Origin: Minisyncoccota bacterium
GTDB lineage: Bacteria > Patescibacteriota > Minisyncoccia > UBA6257 > 2-01-FULL-56-20
DNA length: 64,000 nt
Assembly (NCBI GenBank): GCA_035509435.1
Contig: DATJLR010000002.1
Location: 69,774 to 133,773 of the forward strand
Reading direction: 5' to 3'
The first letter of the stretch is position 1, and every line of letters starts with the position of its first letter. A program made the translations under genes and the position numbers. The notes beneath the pieces were generated by a model that searched no databases, was not told the origin of the DNA, and saw nothing but the letters and a program-made list of their open reading frames with translations. Shown in pieces: positions 2,615 to 49,143 of this stretch.

Positions 2615-2655
2615 CATCGGTGCGCCCCGGGCCGCCGATGTGATAAAATGAGAGC

Positions 2656-4167
2656 ATGACCGTTCACTCCCGCCGCGGGCAGTCCATCACGGAGGTGCTG
2701 ATCTCGATCGCGATCGCCGGGATATTCGCCGCCGGCGCCGCGTCGATCATCGCGCCCGCCCTGCGCGAGAACAGCCAGGCGGGAAAGATCCAGCAGGCCG
2801 CGACGGAGGCGCAATCCCTGCTTGCCGGCGTGCGCGTATGGTCGGAAGCGAACTGGAGCAACGTCCTTTCCCTTGCGACCGGCACGGCGAGCGACTATTA
2901 CCTGATCACATCGTCAACGCCGTACACGGCGACGTCGGGAGTCGAGTCGATCGTCATCGGCACGACGACATACACGCGATATTTTTATCTGACCGATGCG
3001 TATCGCGCGAGCGGCGGCGCGATCTCCAACGCGTCCTCGGGGAACACCTATGATCCCTCCACCAAGCAGATCACCGTGGTGTATGGATGGGCGGGCTCGG
3101 CGACGGGCACAATGAGCGCGTATCTCACCCGGAACGGCGATGTCACGTTCCTTCAGACGGACTGGTCCGGCGGCCCCAATCCGGGCAGGGTGGCGACCAC
3201 CGTCGGCAGCCAGTTTTCCTCGTCCTCCAATATCGACTACACGGACATATCGGGTTCGATATCCATCCCGCTGAACTCCATAACGGACCAATACGGCACG
3301 TGGGTGCTCGTTCCCGGCAACAGCACCTTCGGGACCCCGAACTTTTGGGTCATGAAATATGCGGCGGTCTGCACCAATGGCAGCGGAAGCGTCGTGAATA
3401 CGCCCTCTGATGACGGGGGCTACGATGATGCTTCCAAGAATTGCACATCCGCAAATAGCTTGCAGATCGGCTCGTTTCCCGGCGGCGACCCCATCGTGGA
3501 TGTCTCTCATACGAGCGCCTCTTCTTACTGCCAGTCCATCGGCGCGCATCTTCTCACAAACGACGAGTATATGACGATCGTGACGAACGCCGCAAACCAG
3601 GGTTCCAACTGGACAGGGGGCAGTGTCGGGTCCGGCGGCATATATATCGGCAACGCGAACAATCCGGAGCCGTACCCCGCTGGTTCAAGCGATGCGAACG
3701 GCTATGCGGGTGAATCGGACCTGACCGTCACATATACGAACGACGAGCGGCGCACGTTCACGCTTTCGAACGGGAGCATTGTCTGGGATATGTCCGGCAA
3801 TGTTTGGGAGGATGTTTCCCGGAGCGTGAACGACTCGGGTGACGCCACGACCACCATGTCCATGCCTTCCTGTTCCGATAACTATAACGGGTGGGAAGAT
3901 TGCCAGTTCGGCAATTCGACGATCCCTTATATCACGTCGTATACCTCGGACCTCACGCAGCTTATGCTCGCGCCGCCGAACTCTTCGTGGAATTCGTCCC
4001 AGAATGTCGGCGTGGTCCAAACGTACGGCTCGGGCGGGAATCAGGGGGCCGCCGGCTTTGCCCGTGGCGGCAACGCTGACGACGGCTCGAGCGCCGGCGC
4101 ATTCGCGTTCTTTCCGGTGGATCCGAGCGGCTCCGGCAATTGGCTGGGCTTTCGCTGCTCGCGCTGA
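2656..4167 (+). CDS. Pilin-like protein with C-terminal formylglycine-generating-enzyme (FGE/SUMF1)-like domain
   Basis: N-terminus RRGQSITEVLISIAIAGIFAAGA is pilin-like with Glu at +5. C-terminal region has DMSGNVWEDV and terminal GFRCSR, hallmarks of the FGE-sulfatase/DUF323 fold. Confidence 0.65.
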   Translation: MTVHSRRGQSITEVLISIAIAGIFAAGAASIIAPALRENSQAGKIQQAATEAQSLLAGVRVWSEANWSNVLSLATGTASDYYLITSSTPYTATSGVESIVIGTTTYTRYFYLTDAYRASGGAISNASSGNTYDPSTKQITVVYGWAGSATGTMSAYLTRNGDVTFLQTDWSGGPNPGRVATTVGSQFSSSSNIDYTDISGSISIPLNSITDQYGTWVLVPGNSTFGTPNFWVMKYAAVCTNGSGSVVNTPSDDGGYDDASKNCTSANSLQIGSFPGGDPIVDVSHTSASSYCQSIGAHLLTNDEYMTIVTNAANQGSNWTGGSVGSGGIYIGNANNPEPYPAGSSDANGYAGESDLTVTYTNDERRTFTLSNGSIVWDMSGNVWEDVSRSVNDSGDATTTMSMPSCSDNYNGWEDCQFGNSTIPYITSYTSDLTQLMLAPPNSSWNSSQNVGVVQTYGSGGNQGAAGFARGGNADDGSSAGAFAFFPVDPSGSGNWLGFRCSR

Positions 4168-11335: not shown

Positions 11336-11872
11336 TCAGGATAGGGATAATTTTTCGAATACCGCTTCAAATGCCTTTCTGTCGCCCGTGGTGATCGGCG
11401 AGAGCACAAAATCCTCCGCCTTTTTGCGGCGCGCCTCGTCCTTTTCCCGGATACCGATGCGGATGCGCGCAAAGTCCGCAGTGTGGAGGTGGTCGATGAT
11501 GGATTGGACCCCTTTATGCCCCGCGGAACCGCCACCCTGCGCGCGCTTGAACTCGCCGACGGTGATATCGCTGTCGTCATGAATGACGATGATATCCTCC
11601 GCCTTTGCGCCGAAGTCACGCATTGCCGCCGCGACGGCGCGGCCGGACTCGTTCATATAGAGAAGCGGCCGGATGAATATGCGGTTTTGGATCTTTGCGT
11701 AAGCAAAAAGGGCGCCATGCGGGCGGAACTTTATGGTGCCGCGGGGCGCGCCGCCTTCCTCTTCCGACGCGCGCTCCGCGAGCCATTGTACCGCAAGCGC
11801 CCCCACGTTGTGGTAGGTCGTCTCAAGCGCCGGGTCGGGATTTCCGAGGCCAATGATGAGCGTTTGGTCCAT
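11336..11872 (-). CDS. pth: Peptidyl-tRNA hydrolase
   Basis: MDQTLIIGLGNPDP...TYHNVG, canonical Pth N-terminus. 178 aa. Confidence 0.9.
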   Translation of the reverse strand: MDQTLIIGLGNPDPALETTYHNVGALAVQWLAERASEEEGGAPRGTIKFRPHGALFAYAKIQNRIFIRPLLYMNESGRAVAAAMRDFGAKAEDIIVIHDDSDITVGEFKRAQGGGSAGHKGVQSIIDHLHTADFARIRIGIREKDEARRKKAEDFVLSPITTGDRKAFEAVFEKLSLS

Positions 11873-11919
11873 GCTTGATTATTATATTGCATCTTCTATA
11901 TAATGAGTACACTTCATTC

Positions 11920-12495
11920 ATGAGAAAGTTCCTCGCGTCGTTTTTGGAGGTTTTGGAGATCGCGGTCATTGCCGTTGCGGCGGTGTTCATCGTACGGACG
12001 TTTCTTGTCCAGCCGTTTCTCGTGAGCGGCACCAGCATGTATCCTACCTTCTCTAACAACGATTATGTGCTGACGGATGAACTTACCTATCGTATACGGC
12101 CGCCCGAACGCGGCGAGGTCGTGGTATTCCACGATGTGAGCGACCCGTCCACATATCTCATCAAGCGCATCATCGGCCTGCCCGGGGAGCGTGTGGTGAT
12201 CGACAACAACACCGTCACCATCTATAACCAGCAGAATCCGAACGGGTTTGTGCTCGACGAATCGTATCTGCCGCCGGGAACGGTCACGGCGGGGAACGAG
12301 GACGTCACGCTCTCATCGAGCACGTACTTTATGATGGGGGACAACCGCGCCGTGAGTTACGACTCCCGCAGCTGGGGTCCGCTTCCGGCAAAGAACATCG
12401 TCGGCCTTGTGCGTTTCCGCCTCTGGCCGCTCAACGCACTGCAGTTCTTTGGCGCTCCGCAGTATTCGACGTCAACCGCCCCAACGTCCTCGTAA
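11920..12495 (+). CDS. lepB: Signal peptidase I
   Basis: SGTSMYPTF (catalytic Ser), IKRIIGLPGE and GDNRAVSYDSR boxes. Start placed at the internal ATG 11920 to leave a divergent promoter gap with pth; the ORF opens at 11875. Confidence 0.85.
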   Translation: MRKFLASFLEVLEIAVIAVAAVFIVRTFLVQPFLVSGTSMYPTFSNNDYVLTDELTYRIRPPERGEVVVFHDVSDPSTYLIKRIIGLPGERVVIDNNTVTIYNQQNPNGFVLDESYLPPGTVTAGNEDVTLSSSTYFMMGDNRAVSYDSRSWGPLPAKNIVGLVRFRLWPLNALQFFGAPQYSTSTAPTSS

Positions 12496-12503
12496 CCATC
12501 ACC

Positions 12504-13817
12504 ATGCCCATGTCCAAAGAAGAGAAAGAAAAGCCAAAGGAAGTTGTGCGTGCCTTCCAGTCCGTGAAGGGCATGCACGATGTGCTGCCTTCCGATGAGC
12601 CATACTGGGAGAAGATAGAGAGCGTGGTGCGTTCGCTTGCTTCGGCATACGGGTTCTCGCGGATCGAGCCGCCGGTGCTGGAATTCGCCGATCTTTACAA
12701 CAAGACGTCCGGCGAGGGGAGCGATGTGGTGCAAAAAGAGATGTACACGCTCCGCACGAAGGGCGGGGATTTTCTCGCGCTCCGGCCGGAATATACGCCC
12801 GGCGTGGCGCGCGCATACATGCAGAACGGCCTCTCGCGCCTTGGCCAGCCGCAAAAGCTATGGGCAATGGGGCCGGTTTTTCGGCACGAGCGTCCGCAGC
12901 TTGGCCGCGCCCGCCAGTTCACCCAGATCGAGTTCAATACGCTGGGCGGCGTGAACGATCCCATCTACGACGCCGAGATCATCGCGCTTTTTTCAGACCT
13001 GCTTGGCGAGCTCAAGATCAAAAATGTCACGCTCCGCGTGAACTCGATCGGGTGCCGCGTCTGCCGGCCCCTCTATAAAAAGCAGTTGGCAAGCTATTAT
13101 AAGAATCACGAGAGCGATCTGTGCGAGGACTGCAAGACGCGCCTCAAGACGGACCCTCTCAAATTGCTCGATTGCAAAGAGCCGCAGTGCATCGCGCTCA
13201 AGGAGAAGGCGCCCAGCTTCCTCGACAAGCTGTGCGTGATGTGCAGTTCGCATTTCAAGCTAGTCCTGGAATATCTCGACGAGGTGGGCATTTCGTATGA
13301 GCTTGATCCTCACCTCGTGCGCGGCCTCGACTATTACAGCCGCACGGTCTTTGAGATGTATGCCGAGGGGGACGAGGCGCAGATCGGCGCGCTTCCCGCC
13401 GGCGGCCGCTACGATTACTTGATGGAAACGATCGGCGGCCATCTGACGCCCGCCATCGGCGGCGCGTGCGGAGTGGAACGGCTGATCGCCGTCCTGCGCG
13501 CAAAGGAGATCGCGTTCAACGGCAGATCCGGCAAACGCGTGTTCCTCGCGCACGCCGGCGACCTCGCAAAAAAGAAAGCGTTCGCCATCCTGAAGGACCT
13601 CCGCGGCCGCGGATTTCTCGTCACCGAATCACTTGCAAAGGAATCGCTCGCCGCGCAGCTCAAGGTGGCGGACAAGGAGGGTATCGCGCTCGCGCTCATC
13701 CTCGGCCAGAAAGAGATCTATGAGAACACGATCATCATCCGCGACCTCGTGAACGGTTTGCAGGAAGCGGTGCCAATGGAGAAGCTGGGGGAAGAGATAA
13801 AGAAGAGGCAGAAGTAG
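12504..13817 (+). CDS. hisS: Histidine--tRNA ligase
   Basis: Class II aaRS motifs, HisRS-specific regions (GGRYDYL, anticodon-binding C-terminus). 437 aa. Confidence 0.92.
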   Translation: MPMSKEEKEKPKEVVRAFQSVKGMHDVLPSDEPYWEKIESVVRSLASAYGFSRIEPPVLEFADLYNKTSGEGSDVVQKEMYTLRTKGGDFLALRPEYTPGVARAYMQNGLSRLGQPQKLWAMGPVFRHERPQLGRARQFTQIEFNTLGGVNDPIYDAEIIALFSDLLGELKIKNVTLRVNSIGCRVCRPLYKKQLASYYKNHESDLCEDCKTRLKTDPLKLLDCKEPQCIALKEKAPSFLDKLCVMCSSHFKLVLEYLDEVGISYELDPHLVRGLDYYSRTVFEMYAEGDEAQIGALPAGGRYDYLMETIGGHLTPAIGGACGVERLIAVLRAKEIAFNGRSGKRVFLAHAGDLAKKKAFAILKDLRGRGFLVTESLAKESLAAQLKVADKEGIALALILGQKEIYENTIIIRDLVNGLQEAVPMEKLGEEIKKRQK

Positions 13818-43628: not shown

Positions 43629-44054
43629 CTATTTATTGGCCCGGTGCTTTTCGCACTTACAGCCCTTGGGCTTGATGAACTTGTCGAAATATTCCTTGCC
43701 GTAGTCGTAGGTGAGCTCGGTTCCCGCCTTGATGCGTTTGCGGGAGAAGATGAATATCCTGTCGCCGGGACCGATCGCTTCGCAGTTCGGCCTGCACGAG
43801 TGGTTGATGTACCGCGCGCGGTTGGCGCGCACGTTCCCGTCGATCGTCTTGCGGGAGTTCACCTCAAAAAGATATCTGCCTTCGTCCTCGTCCGCCTCTT
43901 TGCTGCTCACCACGCGGCCGGTGTATTCGATGACGCAGACCCCTTTCGGGATATCCTCTTTGGTGAAGAGGCCTTTGCCGGTGAGCGAGCGGCGAACGGA
44001 AAGTTTGTAGCCCCGAGGGGTATATTTGGAGAGATGTTTTTTCATATGGCCCAA
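43629..44054 (-). CDS. SET-domain protein (putative lysine methyltransferase)
   Basis: RYINHSCRPNCE and GTELTYDYG, classic SET/post-SET motifs. 141 aa. Confidence 0.8.
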   Translation of the reverse strand: MGHMKKHLSKYTPRGYKLSVRRSLTGKGLFTKEDIPKGVCVIEYTGRVVSSKEADEDEGRYLFEVNSRKTIDGNVRANRARYINHSCRPNCEAIGPGDRIFIFSRKRIKAGTELTYDYGKEYFDKFIKPKGCKCEKHRANK

Positions 44055-44078: not shown

Positions 44079-44756
44079 TTACCATATATACGGCACAAGC
44101 CGATAGCGGACCTTCTGCGTGTATTCGGCATACCCCGGAAGATCTTTCTTCAATATTTTTTCTTCGTCGATCATCCGCCACAGAAGGATGGGAAAGAAGG
44201 GGACGATGAGGGCTATCGTCCACCATGAACCGAGCGCGAGCGGGATGCCCACAAAGAGCCATAATGCTCCCGCATACATCGGATGCCGCACGTGCGCGTA
44301 CGGGCCGCTCGAGACCACCTTTTGGTCAGCCGCCACGGTGATGTTCGCCGCCGCGAAGCTGTTCACGCGGATGACCCAGAAGATAAAGAGGAAAGAAAGC
44401 ACGATGATGAGATTGCCGAGCACGCTGCCCCATGCGGGAACCGGCGAGAGGCCGTAGCGATGGTCAAGCACGGCGAGGACGATGAAGGCAAAGAACGAGA
44501 AGATGATGAGCGATATGATGATCTTCTGCGCCGCGCCCTCCTCTTTCCACGGTCCGGCGTTCATCCTGCGCTCAAGGAGCGGGCGATCATAGAGCAAGAG
44601 GTATATCGTGAAGGCGATCGTCGAGAGCGCAAAGACGGCGAGAAAAAGCCAGCCCTGCCAGTACTGCCACGTTCCCGCGCTCACGTATATGAGCGCCACG
44701 AAGAACGCCATCCCGAGCACGCTTTGCATGATCGCTTTCCCGATGAGGGACCTCAT
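44079..44756 (-). CDS. Isoprenylcysteine carboxyl methyltransferase (ICMT)/phospholipid methyltransferase family membrane protein
   Basis: Multi-TM, C-terminal VSSGPYAHVRHPMYAGALWLFVGIPL motif of the ICMT/PEMT family. 225 aa. Confidence 0.8.
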   Translation of the reverse strand: MRSLIGKAIMQSVLGMAFFVALIYVSAGTWQYWQGWLFLAVFALSTIAFTIYLLLYDRPLLERRMNAGPWKEEGAAQKIIISLIIFSFFAFIVLAVLDHRYGLSPVPAWGSVLGNLIIVLSFLFIFWVIRVNSFAAANITVAADQKVVSSGPYAHVRHPMYAGALWLFVGIPLALGSWWTIALIVPFFPILLWRMIDEEKILKKDLPGYAEYTQKVRYRLVPYIW

Positions 44757-45062: not shown

Positions 45063-45677
45063 ATGCCAATCAGATTTACCATCCCTAATAATTTCGGTAA
45101 GACGCAGATGCCACGACGTTTCACTATGAGTTCCCAAGAATCCAAGGAAACCGTTGAGGGCAAAGAAGGTCTTAGCGTCGCCGAACTGAAAAAGGGCGGC
45201 GTGTTCCGGGGTCGGCGCGTGGAAGCGCAATACGGGTTTCGATATGGCGAGTTCGAGATGATACTCGTCCACGATCCGATCGAGCTCGATTGGTACTTGA
45301 AGATTACGAATCCGGGGCCAAGAAACCGGAATAACGCCATCACGATCGTCGAGACCTCTTGCCACTATGGAGGCGTCCGGGAGTGGTTCGTGTGCCCTCG
45401 TTGCGAGCGTCGCTGCGGCAACTTGTACAAAGATGAAGATGACTTCGCCTGCCGGCGCTGCATGGATTTCGGATACGCTTCGCAAAGGGTGAACTATCGG
45501 AGCTTTGAGCCGACCATTGTTCGCATGAAGAAATATGAAAAAGAGATCGAAAAGAAACCCATTTACCAATCTTACAAAGGGAAGCCAACAAAACGTGCCC
45601 TGCGCTACGACAAGCTCTTGGAGCGGTTAGGATCGTGGAGCGAAGCTTTTAACCAGCGGGAAGCGGAGGAGCTTTAA
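45063..45677 (+). CDS. Hypothetical protein with CxxC...CxxC zinc-ribbon
   Basis: CPRCERRCGNLYKDEDDFACRRCMD motif, 204 aa, AT-rich codon usage. The overlapping minus ORF 44885..45343 is less protein-like. Confidence 0.5.
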   Translation: MPIRFTIPNNFGKTQMPRRFTMSSQESKETVEGKEGLSVAELKKGGVFRGRRVEAQYGFRYGEFEMILVHDPIELDWYLKITNPGPRNRNNAITIVETSCHYGGVREWFVCPRCERRCGNLYKDEDDFACRRCMDFGYASQRVNYRSFEPTIVRMKKYEKEIEKKPIYQSYKGKPTKRALRYDKLLERLGSWSEAFNQREAEEL

Positions 45678-45768
45678 CTTCATACTTGGGGATACATCAC
45701 GCTTCCCTTGGTGCTGTTATTTTTGTAAAATTAAAGTATTAAAACGGTCTAGCGCTCGTTTAATTCAA

Positions 45769-46389
45769 ATGGTTCTTACTAACGATAAACTCATACGTGC
45801 GGCTCTACGAGCTAACTTGGAACGGGACCTGCAAAGATACCGGGCAAAGAGCGGCCATCCAGCGCAAATTTTTGAAGAACTTGGGGTAAGGCACGGCGTT
45901 TCAAGGATTGACCTTGCCGTGATCAACGGCGTGATGCACGGCTATGAGATAAAGAGTGACCTAGACACACTTCAAAGACTCCCGGATCAGGTAGATGCCT
46001 TTAGCTCCGTATTCGACAAGCTAACGCTCGTCGTCGGAAAAAAACATTTGTACGATGCGATAAACATCCTACCTGATTGGTGGGGGGTCTTGCTTGCAAA
46101 AGTTGATGACGATGGAACCTTGATTTTCCAATCTATCAGGAAGGCGAGTAAAAATTTTACGCAAGACCCCCATTCGATTGCGAAGCTTTTATGGAGGGAG
46201 GAGGCGTTACAAATTTTAGAGAATAAGAATAGAGCGAAAGGAGTTCGATCAAAAACACGCGACGTAATTTATGAGAGGTTGGCTGAGGTCATGCCGATCG
46301 GTGCACTGAAAGAGAGGGTGAGGGATGCACTATTGGTTTCTCGCGAAGGCTGGCGATCTGATCTACCACTAGCTTTAAGTGGTGATTAA
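45769..46389 (+). CDS. PD-(D/E)xK nuclease-fold protein (sce7726-family-like)
   Basis: RIDLAVING...GYEIKSD gives the D...ExK catalytic signature in the expected beta-strand context. ~206 aa, matching the uncharacterised sce7726-type proteins that pair with sce7725-type partners (family assignment from memory, unverified). Confidence 0.55.
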   Translation: MVLTNDKLIRAALRANLERDLQRYRAKSGHPAQIFEELGVRHGVSRIDLAVINGVMHGYEIKSDLDTLQRLPDQVDAFSSVFDKLTLVVGKKHLYDAINILPDWWGVLLAKVDDDGTLIFQSIRKASKNFTQDPHSIAKLLWREEALQILENKNRAKGVRSKTRDVIYERLAEVMPIGALKERVRDALLVSREGWRSDLPLALSGD

Positions 46390-47506
46390 TTTCCCAAGCA
46401 ATCCAATCTACTGCGCGGCCGGTACCTTTAAGTGAGGTATCTTTTATGTATCGGTGGAAATGCTTCGCCTTCTCAGCAATTTGTTTATCTCCCCAGCAGT
46501 GTTTTTCTCCGTAAAATAAATTTTTATCATCAATGATGTCTTCTACGAGTAGTTTCGCGTTTGCTAAATAATATTGGAACTCGGCTACTTTTCCCTTCAT
46601 AACCAGCCAATCTTTTTCGAGAGTGTATTTGATGCTTGTGGTTGAATTATAGTACTGAAGCGCTTCAACGAAAATGGGGTTTCGAATAGTGTAATCGGCG
46701 TAATTGGGCTTTCTAACGAGTTTTTGGGTTCGGACATGTTGAAACCAACCATGCCAATCCGCACGTGGTAAGAAGTTAGGTTTATCAAGCTCGCACTCGC
46801 CAACATCTTTTGGAAAAGCACCGCTTGCGAATATGAAGTTTTTCCAGCTACCTAAGTTTTTTATTTTTTGGCTGGCGGTCAAAAATTGTAAATACAGCCC
46901 GTCTTTTTCTTGGATTGCTTTGATATCGACCAATAAGTCGATCTCCTTTTCGGCTAAGTTAAATGCAGCCAAAAAGGCGCCGATTTTTTCATTTAGCTTT
47001 TCTGGATCGAGGAGGTCAGAGGATGCAATTCTCAGGCAAAGGCCCTCTTTGTATTTTCCATAAAGAGAACAAGCCGCTGCTTTTATGCTGTCATCATCGT
47101 TCAAATTCAAAACCGGGATCAACTTCGCCCCCAATCCCATAGCTGCTGGTACAATTGAATTTAATGCGTCTACTTTTAGCTGGGTAGTTAGCTCGCCCTC
47201 CATCAGTAATGTAAAGTCGACAAAGATAGGTCTAGAGCCCCACGCTTTAAATATCTCATTCGGGATTTCGTTTATGCGCTCTTCCTTAAATTTTTTCACC
47301 ACTTCCGCAAAGATTTCCTCTTGAGATTTTTTTACTTTCTTTTTCTCCCCGTTCTGGTGAACAATTTTGGAATTATTCACTGTCGGCATTACAAGCTCGA
47401 TCAGAGGCAGTAGAGCGTCTTTGGTTTTTTCATCCAAAGGCTCGAGCGCCCACTGTTCGGCCGGCTTCCACTTAAGTATTGGGGTGTACTGTTCTTTATT
47501 TAACAT
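46289..47506 (-). CDS. ~400-aa uncharacterised partner protein (sce7725-family-like)
   Basis: Long AT-rich ORF, convergent with and overlapping the nuclease-like gene by ~100 nt. Start placed at the internal ATG (MLNKEQYTPILKWKP...) 11 nt inside the upstream higA-immA gene. No catalytic motif recognised by eye. Confidence 0.5.
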   Translation of the reverse strand: MLNKEQYTPILKWKPAEQWALEPLDEKTKDALLPLIELVMPTVNNSKIVHQNGEKKKVKKSQEEIFAEVVKKFKEERINEIPNEIFKAWGSRPIFVDFTLLMEGELTTQLKVDALNSIVPAAMGLGAKLIPVLNLNDDDSIKAAACSLYGKYKEGLCLRIASSDLLDPEKLNEKIGAFLAAFNLAEKEIDLLVDIKAIQEKDGLYLQFLTASQKIKNLGSWKNFIFASGAFPKDVGECELDKPNFLPRADWHGWFQHVRTQKLVRKPNYADYTIRNPIFVEALQYYNSTTSIKYTLEKDWLVMKGKVAEFQYYLANAKLLVEDIIDDKNLFYGEKHCWGDKQIAEKAKHFHRYIKDTSLKGTGRAVDWIAWEINHHLKLVVDQIASLREKPIVHPSPSLSVHRSA

Positions 47507-48722
47507 GTTTTTTCTTTCCCGATTTCTCGTCGGGGAAAAGAACACGGACCTTTGTTTCGCCTACGATGCTGTTTAAATAAACCCATTTTCCGCTTTCATG
47601 TCTCATTTTCCCGGCGACAATAGCTACGTGAACGCCTAACTCTTTAGCCAGACTATTAGCTGCTATGGATGAGGGGACGAGCTTAGCAGCGCTTATTTCC
47701 CATTTATCGGAAGGTACCAAGGCTTCGCCTGCGAGCTTATCCGCTTCTCTTTCTTTTGTCCCGATATCCGATCCTTTTGGATCTTCAAGTTCGTCATAGA
47801 AGAAATCGATATCCTGATCATAATGCAAAGCCACGTGAGCCAACTCGTGCATTAGCGTAAACCAAAAATTATCTAGTCTATCGTATCTAAGAGTCAGTCC
47901 GATAATCGGATTTTTTTTATCCGCCATAATAGCCATCCCATCTAAAGATGTTTTGGAAAGATGAGGCACTATTACAAGAGTTATCCCGTGCTTTTTTAGA
48001 TAGTCTTTAGCGAGAATTGGTCCATTCTCTTGGATGCTTAATTTTGCTAGCGCCTGCATGAAATCGAGGTTAACCGTCCCGGGTTTATAGGGTGCGTGCG
48101 TGCTTTCTTCTTTTGCTTTTTTTAGAACGCGCGTAGCCCAAGCCGCTAACGCATGTTTATCCGTAAGAGGAGAAGAACGATAATTAGATTTCCGTAAGCC
48201 CATAATTTGCGCAGAAAACTTTGTTTGCGAAAAAAACTCTTTTAGTAAGTCCACCTTGTTCATTTTTTTGACTGATCCAGACCCAAAATAACCACGTTCT
48301 TCCATTTCGGCAATGAGGGCGTTGTTCCAGTTTTGATATTCTGAATTTTCATCTAGTGTCGGCTTTTGAATGAGGACTTTAGCTGGAATCCCAAGACCAA
48401 GCTCCAAAGCTCTAATCATTTCTATGCTAAGAGGTCTTTTCCCGGAGAGTATTTCTGAAACTCTACTAGGACTCCCAAGATACGGAATTAGGTCGGCAGG
48501 TTTTAGATCGGCCTGTTCCATTCTAAATTTAATTGCATCTATGGGACTAGGCAGCGCCGAAGGAAAATATCTTTTTTCATAATCCTCAATCAGCGTACTC
48601 AGCAGGGCGAGTTGCTCGCCTTCTGCTGAATCGGGGTTTGGATCATGGATCATAAGCGTCTCAAGTAATTTGAGCGCTTCTTGGTAATCTGATTCAGTTT
48701 TTATGACTTTGATTATGTTCAT
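47496..48722 (-). CDS. higA: HigA-like HTH (XRE) antitoxin fused to ImmA/IrrE-family metallopeptidase (HEXXH)
   Basis: N-terminus MNIIKVIKTESDYQEALKLLETLM...SRVSEILSGKRPLSIEMIRALELGLGIPAKVLI (HigA-type HTH). C-terminal LMHELAHVAL HEXXH zinc-peptidase motif (DUF955/ImmA). Confidence 0.75.
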   Translation of the reverse strand: MNIIKVIKTESDYQEALKLLETLMIHDPNPDSAEGEQLALLSTLIEDYEKRYFPSALPSPIDAIKFRMEQADLKPADLIPYLGSPSRVSEILSGKRPLSIEMIRALELGLGIPAKVLIQKPTLDENSEYQNWNNALIAEMEERGYFGSGSVKKMNKVDLLKEFFSQTKFSAQIMGLRKSNYRSSPLTDKHALAAWATRVLKKAKEESTHAPYKPGTVNLDFMQALAKLSIQENGPILAKDYLKKHGITLVIVPHLSKTSLDGMAIMADKKNPIIGLTLRYDRLDNFWFTLMHELAHVALHYDQDIDFFYDELEDPKGSDIGTKEREADKLAGEALVPSDKWEISAAKLVPSSIAANSLAKELGVHVAIVAGKMRHESGKWVYLNSIVGETKVRVLFPDEKSGKKKHVK

Positions 48723-48735
48723 GTTTTTAATTTCA

Positions 48736-49017
48736 CTAGGTCCAAGTATCGTATTCTTTGTGGGTCCCAATTTTTTTAACTAAGGCTATTTGATTTTTAT
48801 AGTTGATCTGAGCCAACAACCTGTACTTATTTCCACAAATATCGAACACGACCTGTTGATCCCCTAAGAGGCTGGCTTTTTGATACCTGCTCTTGAGAGC
48901 ATGGGGAGTGGCCCAGCCAGCATCCTCGACTTCCGCCTCCCATGCTTCAATCTGAGCTCTGGCATCTGGATAATTATCCTTGAAGTCGGAAAGTAGCTGT
49001 TTGCCTAGTAATTTCAT
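48736..49017 (-). CDS. higB: Type II toxin HigB (RelE/ParE fold)
   Basis: 93 aa; MKLLGKQLLSDFKDNYPDARAQIEAWEAEVEDAGWATPHALKSRYQKASLL...KIGTHKEYDTW, typical of HigB-family toxins encoded upstream of HigA. Confidence 0.75.
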   Translation of the reverse strand: MKLLGKQLLSDFKDNYPDARAQIEAWEAEVEDAGWATPHALKSRYQKASLLGDQQVVFDICGNKYRLLAQINYKNQIALVKKIGTHKEYDTWT

Positions 49018-49143
49018 ATCTTTTTGCCGGGGATTTAATCATTATTTGGGTTCCCATATTGGGAAGTATGGACGGGTTTATCCGGAATGTCAAGCTCCCC
49101 CCAGAGAGGGGGGGGGATGAGTAATTCGGTGCCGAATAGGCTT

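Follow-up and report, generated by a model that had tools for sequence, protein, structure and literature searches.

Do the AT-rich genes that interrupt a GC-rich stretch of the chromosome of a Minisyncoccota bacterium (assembly GCA_035509435.1, contig DATJLR010000002.1, positions 69,774 to 133,773; hereafter "the window", 64,000 nucleotides in length) form an anti-phage system of a new kind, and which of them belong to it? A sequence-only reading had proposed an uncharacterised five-gene cassette between positions 45,063 and 49,017, in which a Zn-ribbon gene and a nuclease-like gene (A and B) converge on an operon encoding a protein of about 400 amino acids, a HigA-ImmA fusion and HigB (genes C, D and E). 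Our analyses confirm that observation in part and support parts of its interpretation, but not the notion of a novel five-gene system. In our view the locus is likely to be an anti-phage cassette of the PD-lambda-2 type, self-contained, with four genes and acquired by horizontal transfer, which works by the mechanism proposed below. Its four-gene composition, PD-lambda-2 plus the cII gene of gop-beta-cII, appears to be undescribed in the PADLOC models and in the literature we searched. The argument relies on the following features:

45769..46389, plus strand: gene B, protein of the cII/sce7726 family, 206 amino acids, predicted PD-(D/E)xK nuclease
45910..45954, plus strand: residues D48, E60 and K62 of gene B, the catalytic-type positions
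46289..47506, minus strand: gene C, Beta protein, 405 amino acids, equivalent to PD-lambda-2 C, modelled as a divergent TIM barrel
47496..48722, minus strand: gene D, HigA/Xre-type helix-turn-helix (HTH) fused to an ImmA/IrrE M78 metallopeptidase, 408 amino acids, equivalent to PD-lambda-2 B
47835..47849, minus strand: HELAH motif of gene D, the M78 metallopeptidase motif
48736..49017, minus strand: gene E, HigB-like protein of the RelE fold, 93 amino acids, equivalent to PD-lambda-2 A
46289..46389: tail-to-tail coding overlap of cII and beta, 101 nucleotides (nt), read from the coordinates of the open reading frames (ORFs)
45767..49094: the transferred cassette, comprising the four genes, the higB promoter and the operator, delimited as a 76%-identical blastn block
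45063..45677, plus strand: gene A, ORF of the Zn-ribbon protein, not a component of the cassette

All five ORFs of the sequence-only reading are present. The minus-strand operon runs from the higB-like gene through the Xre-HTH/M78 gene to beta, with gaps of 13 nt and 7 nt, a spacing in keeping with an operon, and the inner ATG starts of genes C and D coincide with the starts of their Pfam and PADLOC profile matches. Gene E matches HigB_toxin of Pfam (PF09907, 3e-26) and PD-Lambda-2_A of PADLOC (5.9e-36, profile positions 1-92 of 94). Gene D matches PD-Lambda-2_B (5.8e-145) across 399 of the 402 profile positions; Pfam finds in it Peptidase_M78 (PF06114, 3.9e-9) and, under the cutoff of that model, HTH_3 (20.6 bits), while its N-terminus matches transcriptional-regulator families of PHROG. 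The residues H292, E293 and H296 of its HELAH motif are invariant in 19 homologues, and the protein also matches the capP profile of PADLOC (6.8e-9). Both databases agree with the suggestion that the first two operon genes encode HigB and a fusion of a HigA-like HTH with ImmA/IrrE. Gene C matches Beta_protein of Pfam (PF14350, 2e-53), PD-Lambda-2_C (1.1e-39) and, in addition, the PADLOC "beta" model (4.8e-7). The claim that the system is uncharacterised and novel therefore has to be given up, since PADLOC identifies genes E, D and C as components A, B and C of PD-lambda-2, and beta with cII makes up the core of gop-beta-cII of the satellite phage P4.

The Beta protein had been compared with sce7725, a family whose model (NF033831) gives no match even at E<=10; PF14350 is found instead. 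It had also been said to carry no known catalytic motif, which holds at the level of sequence motifs, but not for the predicted structure, a divergent TIM barrel with near-invariant charged residues at the C-terminal ends of strands. In a comparison of 99 Beta proteins, among them the homologues from P4, Rac-SA53 and a Gordonia phage, the near-invariant residues are E17, D97, R159, D194, R248, D271, Y272, Y294, D340 and H375/H376, and the model places D97, R159, D194 and R248 at the C-terminal ends of the barrel strands or slightly beyond them. The active sites of TIM barrels sit at these ends, and the conserved charged residues of Beta may line a pocket for a ligand or for catalysis.

Gene B belongs to the sce7726 family, as the sequence-only reading had surmised: its score against NF033832 is 161 bits, compared to the curated cutoff of 70. 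A database protein 100% identical to it is recorded with PF26915 ("Phage_P4_cII"), which is the same family, and the PADLOC "cll" model matches gene B at 1.7e-27. The D...ExK signature noted earlier corresponds to D48, E60 and K62, which are invariant across 25 homologues (RID...YEIKSD), and the predicted fold resembles restriction endonucleases, with an alpha/beta core that carries the D...(D/E)xK motif. We therefore predict that gene B encodes a PD-(D/E)xK nuclease with intact catalytic-type residues. Searches of PDB sequences with the profiles of genes B and C gave no meaningful matches, and our literature searches on PF14350, sce7725 and sce7726 found no mechanistic papers.

The main argument for a four-gene unit comes from conservation. 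A scan of one genome per species yielded 473 relatives of gene B, the best 80 loci of which were examined. The same layout, cII on the plus strand converging on minus-strand beta, Xre/M78 and HigB, is found in 71 of the 71 complete loci; the other nine are cut by contig ends. Identity of gene B in complete loci ranges from 44% to 67%, reaching 75% in the nearest relative (assembled as L001 and L002; L numbers denote loci of our comparison). The hosts include Patescibacteria, Planctomycetota, Omnitrophota, Chloroflexota, Acidobacteriota, Gammaproteobacteria, Bacteroidota, Nitrospirota and others, all of them represented by metagenome-assembled genomes. The tail-to-tail overlap, which the sequence-only reading had put at about 100 nt, is likewise a conserved property: of 97 cII/beta pairs from other loci, 96 overlap at their 3' ends, by 26-110 nt with a median of 50 nt, which is also the exact length in 54 of them; only the pair of P4 has a gap instead, of 27 nt. 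Judged by this conserved gene order, the cII gene is a part of the cassette, namely its fourth, strictly conserved gene.

The cassette is also delimited as a unit of transfer. Genes B-E have a GC content of 0.42-0.47, whereas the neighbouring genes have 0.51-0.58 and the window as a whole 0.564; the description of five AT-rich genes in a GC-rich chromosome thus applies to these four, but not to gene A (0.52). Blastn against the nearest relative yields a single 76%-identical block, 45767..49094, with flanks devoid of similarity; the block extends from 2 nt before the ATG of gene B through the higB promoter and includes nothing more. Low GC content and sharp boundaries agree with the proposal of a horizontally acquired, defence-type cassette. 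As to that nearest relative, its Xre/M78 gene is called in two pieces in L001, a 270-kb ENA contig (181 and 235 amino acids; 12422..12967 and 11728..12435), and intact in L002, a Logan contig (412 amino acids; 2654..3892), so that the split may reflect an assembly frameshift or else a true pseudogene.

The regulatory elements upstream of the operon are the following:

49065..49093, minus strand: sigma-70-like promoter of the higB operon (TTGACA, 17 nt, CATACT), 10 of 12 consensus matches
49051..49065: palindromic operator-like site TTCCCATATTGGGAA, directly downstream of the -10 element, to which the HTH may bind
49095..49118: GC-rich hairpin CTCCCCCC-AGAGA-GGGGGGGG, between the hsdM stop (49144) and the -35 element of higB

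The palindrome TTCCCA-N3-TGGGAA, with at most two mismatches, is present in 66 of 70 four-gene loci (perfect in 35), compared to 2 of 1400 shuffled sequences, and usually begins 28 nt downstream of the -35 TTGAC. It recurs in 100 of the 124 loci collected around gene D, including modules that consist of HigB and Xre/M78 alone, and in E. coli PD-lambda-2 (L253, L254) two copies flank the -35 element, the second one being upstream of it. We infer that (G)TTCCCA-N3-TGGGAA(C) is a family-wide operator, bound most simply by the HTH of gene D. On the opposite side, an extended -10 element (TGnTAn[AG]AT) precedes cII in 40 of 64 loci, as against 3% of shuffles, which suggests that cII is as a rule transcribed on its own, as a unit convergent with the operon. 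The cII transcript must then enter the 3' end of beta, which would allow transcriptional interference or antisense pairing.

The type I restriction-modification (R-M) operon reported next to the genes is indeed there, with hsdM, hsdS and hsdR directly adjoining the cassette. The hairpin at 49095..49118 is probably the terminator of the R-M operon and delimits the inserted cassette precisely on this side; lying between the hsdM stop and the higB promoter, it implies that the cassette is not a part of the R-M operon. The tRNA that was also reported to adjoin the genes is not found by ARAGORN in the whole window, nor does any Rfam family match within 43-56 kb. A search at the cassette for an integrase, flanking direct or inverted repeats and other integration signatures returned only short chance repeat matches.

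The Zn-ribbon gene A was the remaining member of the postulated five-gene cassette. Its product has the expected CxxC...CxxC pattern (CPRC and CRRC), and the gene precedes gene B by 91 nt on the same strand, an adjacency that favours a system in which a Zn-ribbon and nuclease arm is wired to a toxin-antitoxin/peptidase arm. Such a five-gene system is nonetheless scarcely credible to us, being contradicted by the 82 related loci centred on cII, none of which has an A-like gene beside the cassette; the single A-like match, in L078, is weak, about 2.2 kb away and on the opposite strand. Moreover, gene A lies beyond the conserved block, with a GC content unlike that of genes B-E, and those four belong to known systems. 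Conservation of the five-gene neighbourhood, as it had been envisaged, thus extends to four genes in every complete locus, and gene A is unlinked to them. Gene A is not an orphan either: a full HMMER scan yields, at E<=1e-3, 4818 cluster representatives of its uncharacterised family of proteins of about 180-200 amino acids, of which 184 remain at <=1e-10, while Pfam, NCBIfam and PHROG contain no model for it. NCBI annotates a shorter gene of 183 amino acids (VMA75_01365). The relatives of gene A occur in unrelated contexts; in L004 the neighbours are a DnaG-type Zn-ribbon protein and a serine recombinase, a hint that the family may act in mobile elements. From these contexts and from its absence in the 82 loci we conclude that gene A is a neighbour of the cassette and not its component. 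Elsewhere in the vicinity, a 141-amino-acid SET-domain protein (PF00856, 1.6e-24) is encoded beside a membrane methyltransferase of the PEMT/ICMT family (43629..44054 and 44079..44756, both on the minus strand). SET-domain proteins are uncommon in bacteria. The GC content of the window seems high for Candidatus Paceibacterota, the label that the source record, a metagenome-assembled genome, gives to the 439,088-bp contig.

How might the four genes work together? PD-lambda-2 of E. coli ECOR42 acts by abortive infection against lambda-vir; its B protein is toxic alone and is rescued by A, while C, a relative of a P4 phage antitoxin, is needed for defence and not for neutralisation (Vassallo 2022; PMC9519451). 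In the mechanism that we propose, the HTH of the gene D fusion would bind TTCCCA-N3-TGGGAA and repress its own operon. The peptidase fusion, as shown for its E. coli homologue, would be the latent toxic component, held in check by the HigB-like protein. Beta would be dispensable for this neutralisation and required for defence, as its homologue is in E. coli. The P4 system, which also contains a beta, responds to a phage accessory protein, the orf184 product of coliphages (bioRxiv 10.1101/2023.04.06.535777). Since beta is needed for defence, and a beta-containing system answers a phage protein, we propose that Beta may be the sensor or activator, perhaps by way of catalysis or ligand binding in its pocket. 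Activation would free the peptidase and/or the RNase, leading to growth arrest and abortive infection. The cII protein, the obligate partner of beta in this lineage, could be a second, DNA-directed effector or a regulator, and its expression may be coupled to that of the operon by convergent, overlapping transcription.

Several results weigh against this scenario, in particular against the role that it gives to cII. The cII profile finds nothing at E<=1 in three complete E. coli genomes with PD-lambda-2, and the ECOR42 clone that conferred defence reached just 396 bp past the third gene, a distance too short for a complete cII gene; the cII-less state of ECOR42 is deduced from these three other genomes and from the cloned flank. 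As PD-lambda-2 of E. coli lacks cII, this gene cannot be universally required. Two further loci without cII (L188 and L192) are nested inside the clade of four-gene betas, where we read them as secondary losses on the basis of the tree. The structural model of cII is of moderate quality only (pLDDT 62.6), with low confidence in a conserved C-terminal tail (residues 184-206), and the Foldseek matches of Beta are generic TIM barrels that point to no specific family. Upstream of cII the window contains only a near match to the extended -10 element, and no exact one. Co-occurrence with R-M systems does not hold as a rule, as type I R-M-like genes flank just 6 of the 82 related loci; their adjacency in the window is for the same reason regarded as incidental.

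With these points in mind, the other explanations of the locus can be considered. The genes might represent systems that are independent of each other and merely side by side, i.e. a three-gene PD-lambda-2 and a solitary, functionally uncoupled cII nuclease gene. This would agree with the activity of PD-lambda-2 in E. coli without cII, with the promoter that cII usually has for itself, and with the presence of cII-family genes in phages without detectable beta nearby (e.g. in many Staphylococcus phages). However, we find it improbable in view of a linkage that remains strict in all complete loci even at 44% identity of cII, of the conserved coding overlap, of the transfer of the cassette as one block, and of the pairing of cII with beta in P4, in Rac-SA53, in phages of Gordonia and Mycolicibacterium, and on plasmids of Rhizobiaceae. 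There is similarly little to recommend the view that the cassette is mainly an addiction module, i.e. a toxin-antitoxin module that stabilises a mobile island and plays no anti-phage role in this host. HigB with Xre/M78 does occur alone, on plasmids and in 41 loci centred on gene D, the operator is suggestive of classic toxin-antitoxin autoregulation, and a trio of HigBA and Beta has been interpreted as stabilising a resistance island (PMC7643966). On the other hand, close homologues of the three operon genes defend E. coli, in which beta serves defence rather than neutralisation, gop-beta-cII defends as well, and the cassette resides in a chromosome, where neither an integrase nor flanking repeats accompany it.

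A very improbable alternative is a pair analogous to R-M systems, in which Beta modifies nucleic acid in the manner of TGT or DpdA, cII cleaves unmodified or modified DNA, and HigB with Xre/M78 is only a switch. The idea that Beta is a TGT/DpdA-like transglycosylase was considered and rejected, as its Foldseek matches are weak and generic and do not single out these enzymes. TGT enzymes carry a zinc-binding Cys cluster, whereas Beta has a single invariant Cys, C157, so that there is no TGT-like cluster in it. Furthermore, Beta works without cII in E. coli, and in P4 it neutralises gop rather than cII (PMC9122126). We therefore return to the four-gene PD-lambda-2-type cassette as the explanation that we favour.

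The two systems whose parts meet in this cassette, PD-lambda-2 and gop-beta-cII, are both experimentally validated as anti-phage. They have separate models in PADLOC, and are unrelated entries in a classification of defence systems (bioRxiv 10.1101/2024.10.26.620412). The locus described here and its approximately 80 relatives suggest instead that the two are variations on a single architecture centred on beta. The picture that emerges from gene orders is modular: a variable toxin/regulator module, followed by beta, with or without a convergent cII, and the pairing of cII with beta is widespread and probably ancestral. A still broader scenario, which taken as a whole we regard as rather unlikely and put forward only tentatively, is that convergent, overlapping beta and cII form the ancestral core of a modular defence super-family. 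PD-lambda-2 and gop-beta-cII may then be two of its members, with gop, HigB plus Xre/M78, and the 162-amino-acid protein plus Xre of Rhizobiaceae as interchangeable modules; the three-gene PD-lambda-2 of E. coli may be derived by loss of cII; and Beta may be a true enzyme, with a substrate or product that governs the toxin module as well as the nuclease, the 3' overlap making expression of the two arms mutually exclusive. The practical consequence is that the current three-gene definition omits a nuclease which is present in the form prevailing in uncultured phyla; this suggests that annotation tools under-call one component of the system. For studies of the mechanism, D48, E60 and K62 of cII, the charged residues of Beta and the defined operator offer convenient handles.

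The composition of related loci bears on this modularity. Among viral and metagenome contigs centred on gene D, those loci whose downstream DNA is long enough to judge comprise 41 two-gene modules of HigB plus Xre/M78, like those on plasmids of Deefgea, Paraburkholderia and Acinetobacter, 12 four-gene cassettes, and six three-gene loci with beta and without cII. In a crude neighbour-joining tree the betas of four-gene loci make up one large clade, to which the stand-alone beta of Rac-SA53 is sister, and those of the E. coli type cluster apart, with the betas of P4 and of the Gordonia phages. In two of the three-gene loci without cII, another gene converges on beta (7747..8259 in L096 and 4167..4940 in L188, both on the minus strand); the product of one bears a weak resemblance to DUF6998 that falls short of the Pfam cutoff, that of the other has an FRG domain, and both may be alternative partners of beta.

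Compared to the PD-lambda-2 of E. coli, the window has the same three genes in the same order and orientation, all three PADLOC profiles match, and an operator of the same palindromic type lies upstream of the E. coli loci. It differs in the addition of the convergent, overlapping cII/sce7726 gene, which is kept throughout its clade, and in its beta, as the E. coli betas belong to a separate clade. The absence of cII in E. coli and the separation of the beta clades together indicate that the window carries an undescribed four-gene subtype. Nucleotide similarity does not bridge this distance: blastn in distant mode with the operon of the window gave no match in the E. coli genomes, and their loci were reached via an intermediate three-gene metagenomic locus (L218). 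In E. coli, the genes annotated as HigB, ImmA/IrrE and "beta family protein" lie beside integrases, and those downstream of them are mutually unrelated (hypothetical, SIR2, DUF3223). All three loci (L253-L255) are in integrase-bounded islands, with ffs beside L253 and ssrA beside L255; a SIR2-family gene is located within about 1.6 kb downstream in two of the three, directly adjacent in L254.

The gop-beta-cII system protects against lambda and P1, and its gop is toxic without beta (Rousset 2022; PMC9122126); our account of P4 genetics is second-hand, based on that work and on the RefSeq annotation. In P4, gop and beta are on the plus strand and the convergent cII on the minus strand, so that, as in the window, a toxin module precedes beta. 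However, gop is replaced in the window by the HigB-like protein and Xre/M78, and none of the five proteins matches the PADLOC gop model. The overlap of the window corresponds in P4 to the 27-nt gap, which contains a terminator; the cII of P4 is longer (264 amino acids), with pairwise similarity confined to the nuclease core; and its beta is only distantly similar to ours (E 6e-4). With the sce7725/sce7726 pairs (NF033831/NF033832), the window shares gene B, which is sce7726, but the partner of gene B is not sce7725.

The convergent beta/cII pair of the window is also found in temperate phages, namely in Rac-SA53, in the Gordonia phages Powerball and DumpsterDude, and in the Mycolicibacterium phage Mycofy1, with overlaps of 41 nt in Rac-SA53 and 89 nt in Powerball; unlike in the window, no HigB or Xre/M78 module is present upstream of beta in Rac-SA53 and Powerball. 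On plasmids of Rhizobiaceae, cII converges on beta and Xre, and a 162-amino-acid first gene replaces HigB. In pAt1D1460 of Agrobacterium tumefaciens (L256, 4501..7861), sce7726 converges on beta, which is followed by a 420-amino-acid XRE-family gene and the 162-amino-acid hypothetical gene, a third kind of upstream module; the locus adjoins an RNA-directed DNA polymerase gene and an integrase. This cultured relative with the beta/cII/Xre layout could be a tractable model, although its first gene is not HigB. Finally, gene D resembles the ImmR/ImmA, DdrO/IrrE and CapH/CapP (CBASS) switches, in which an M78 HExxH peptidase is likewise combined with an Xre-type HTH. It differs from them in uniting both in one polypeptide that is paired with a HigB-like protein, and in that, in the E. 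coli homologue of the system, the fusion itself is the toxic component.

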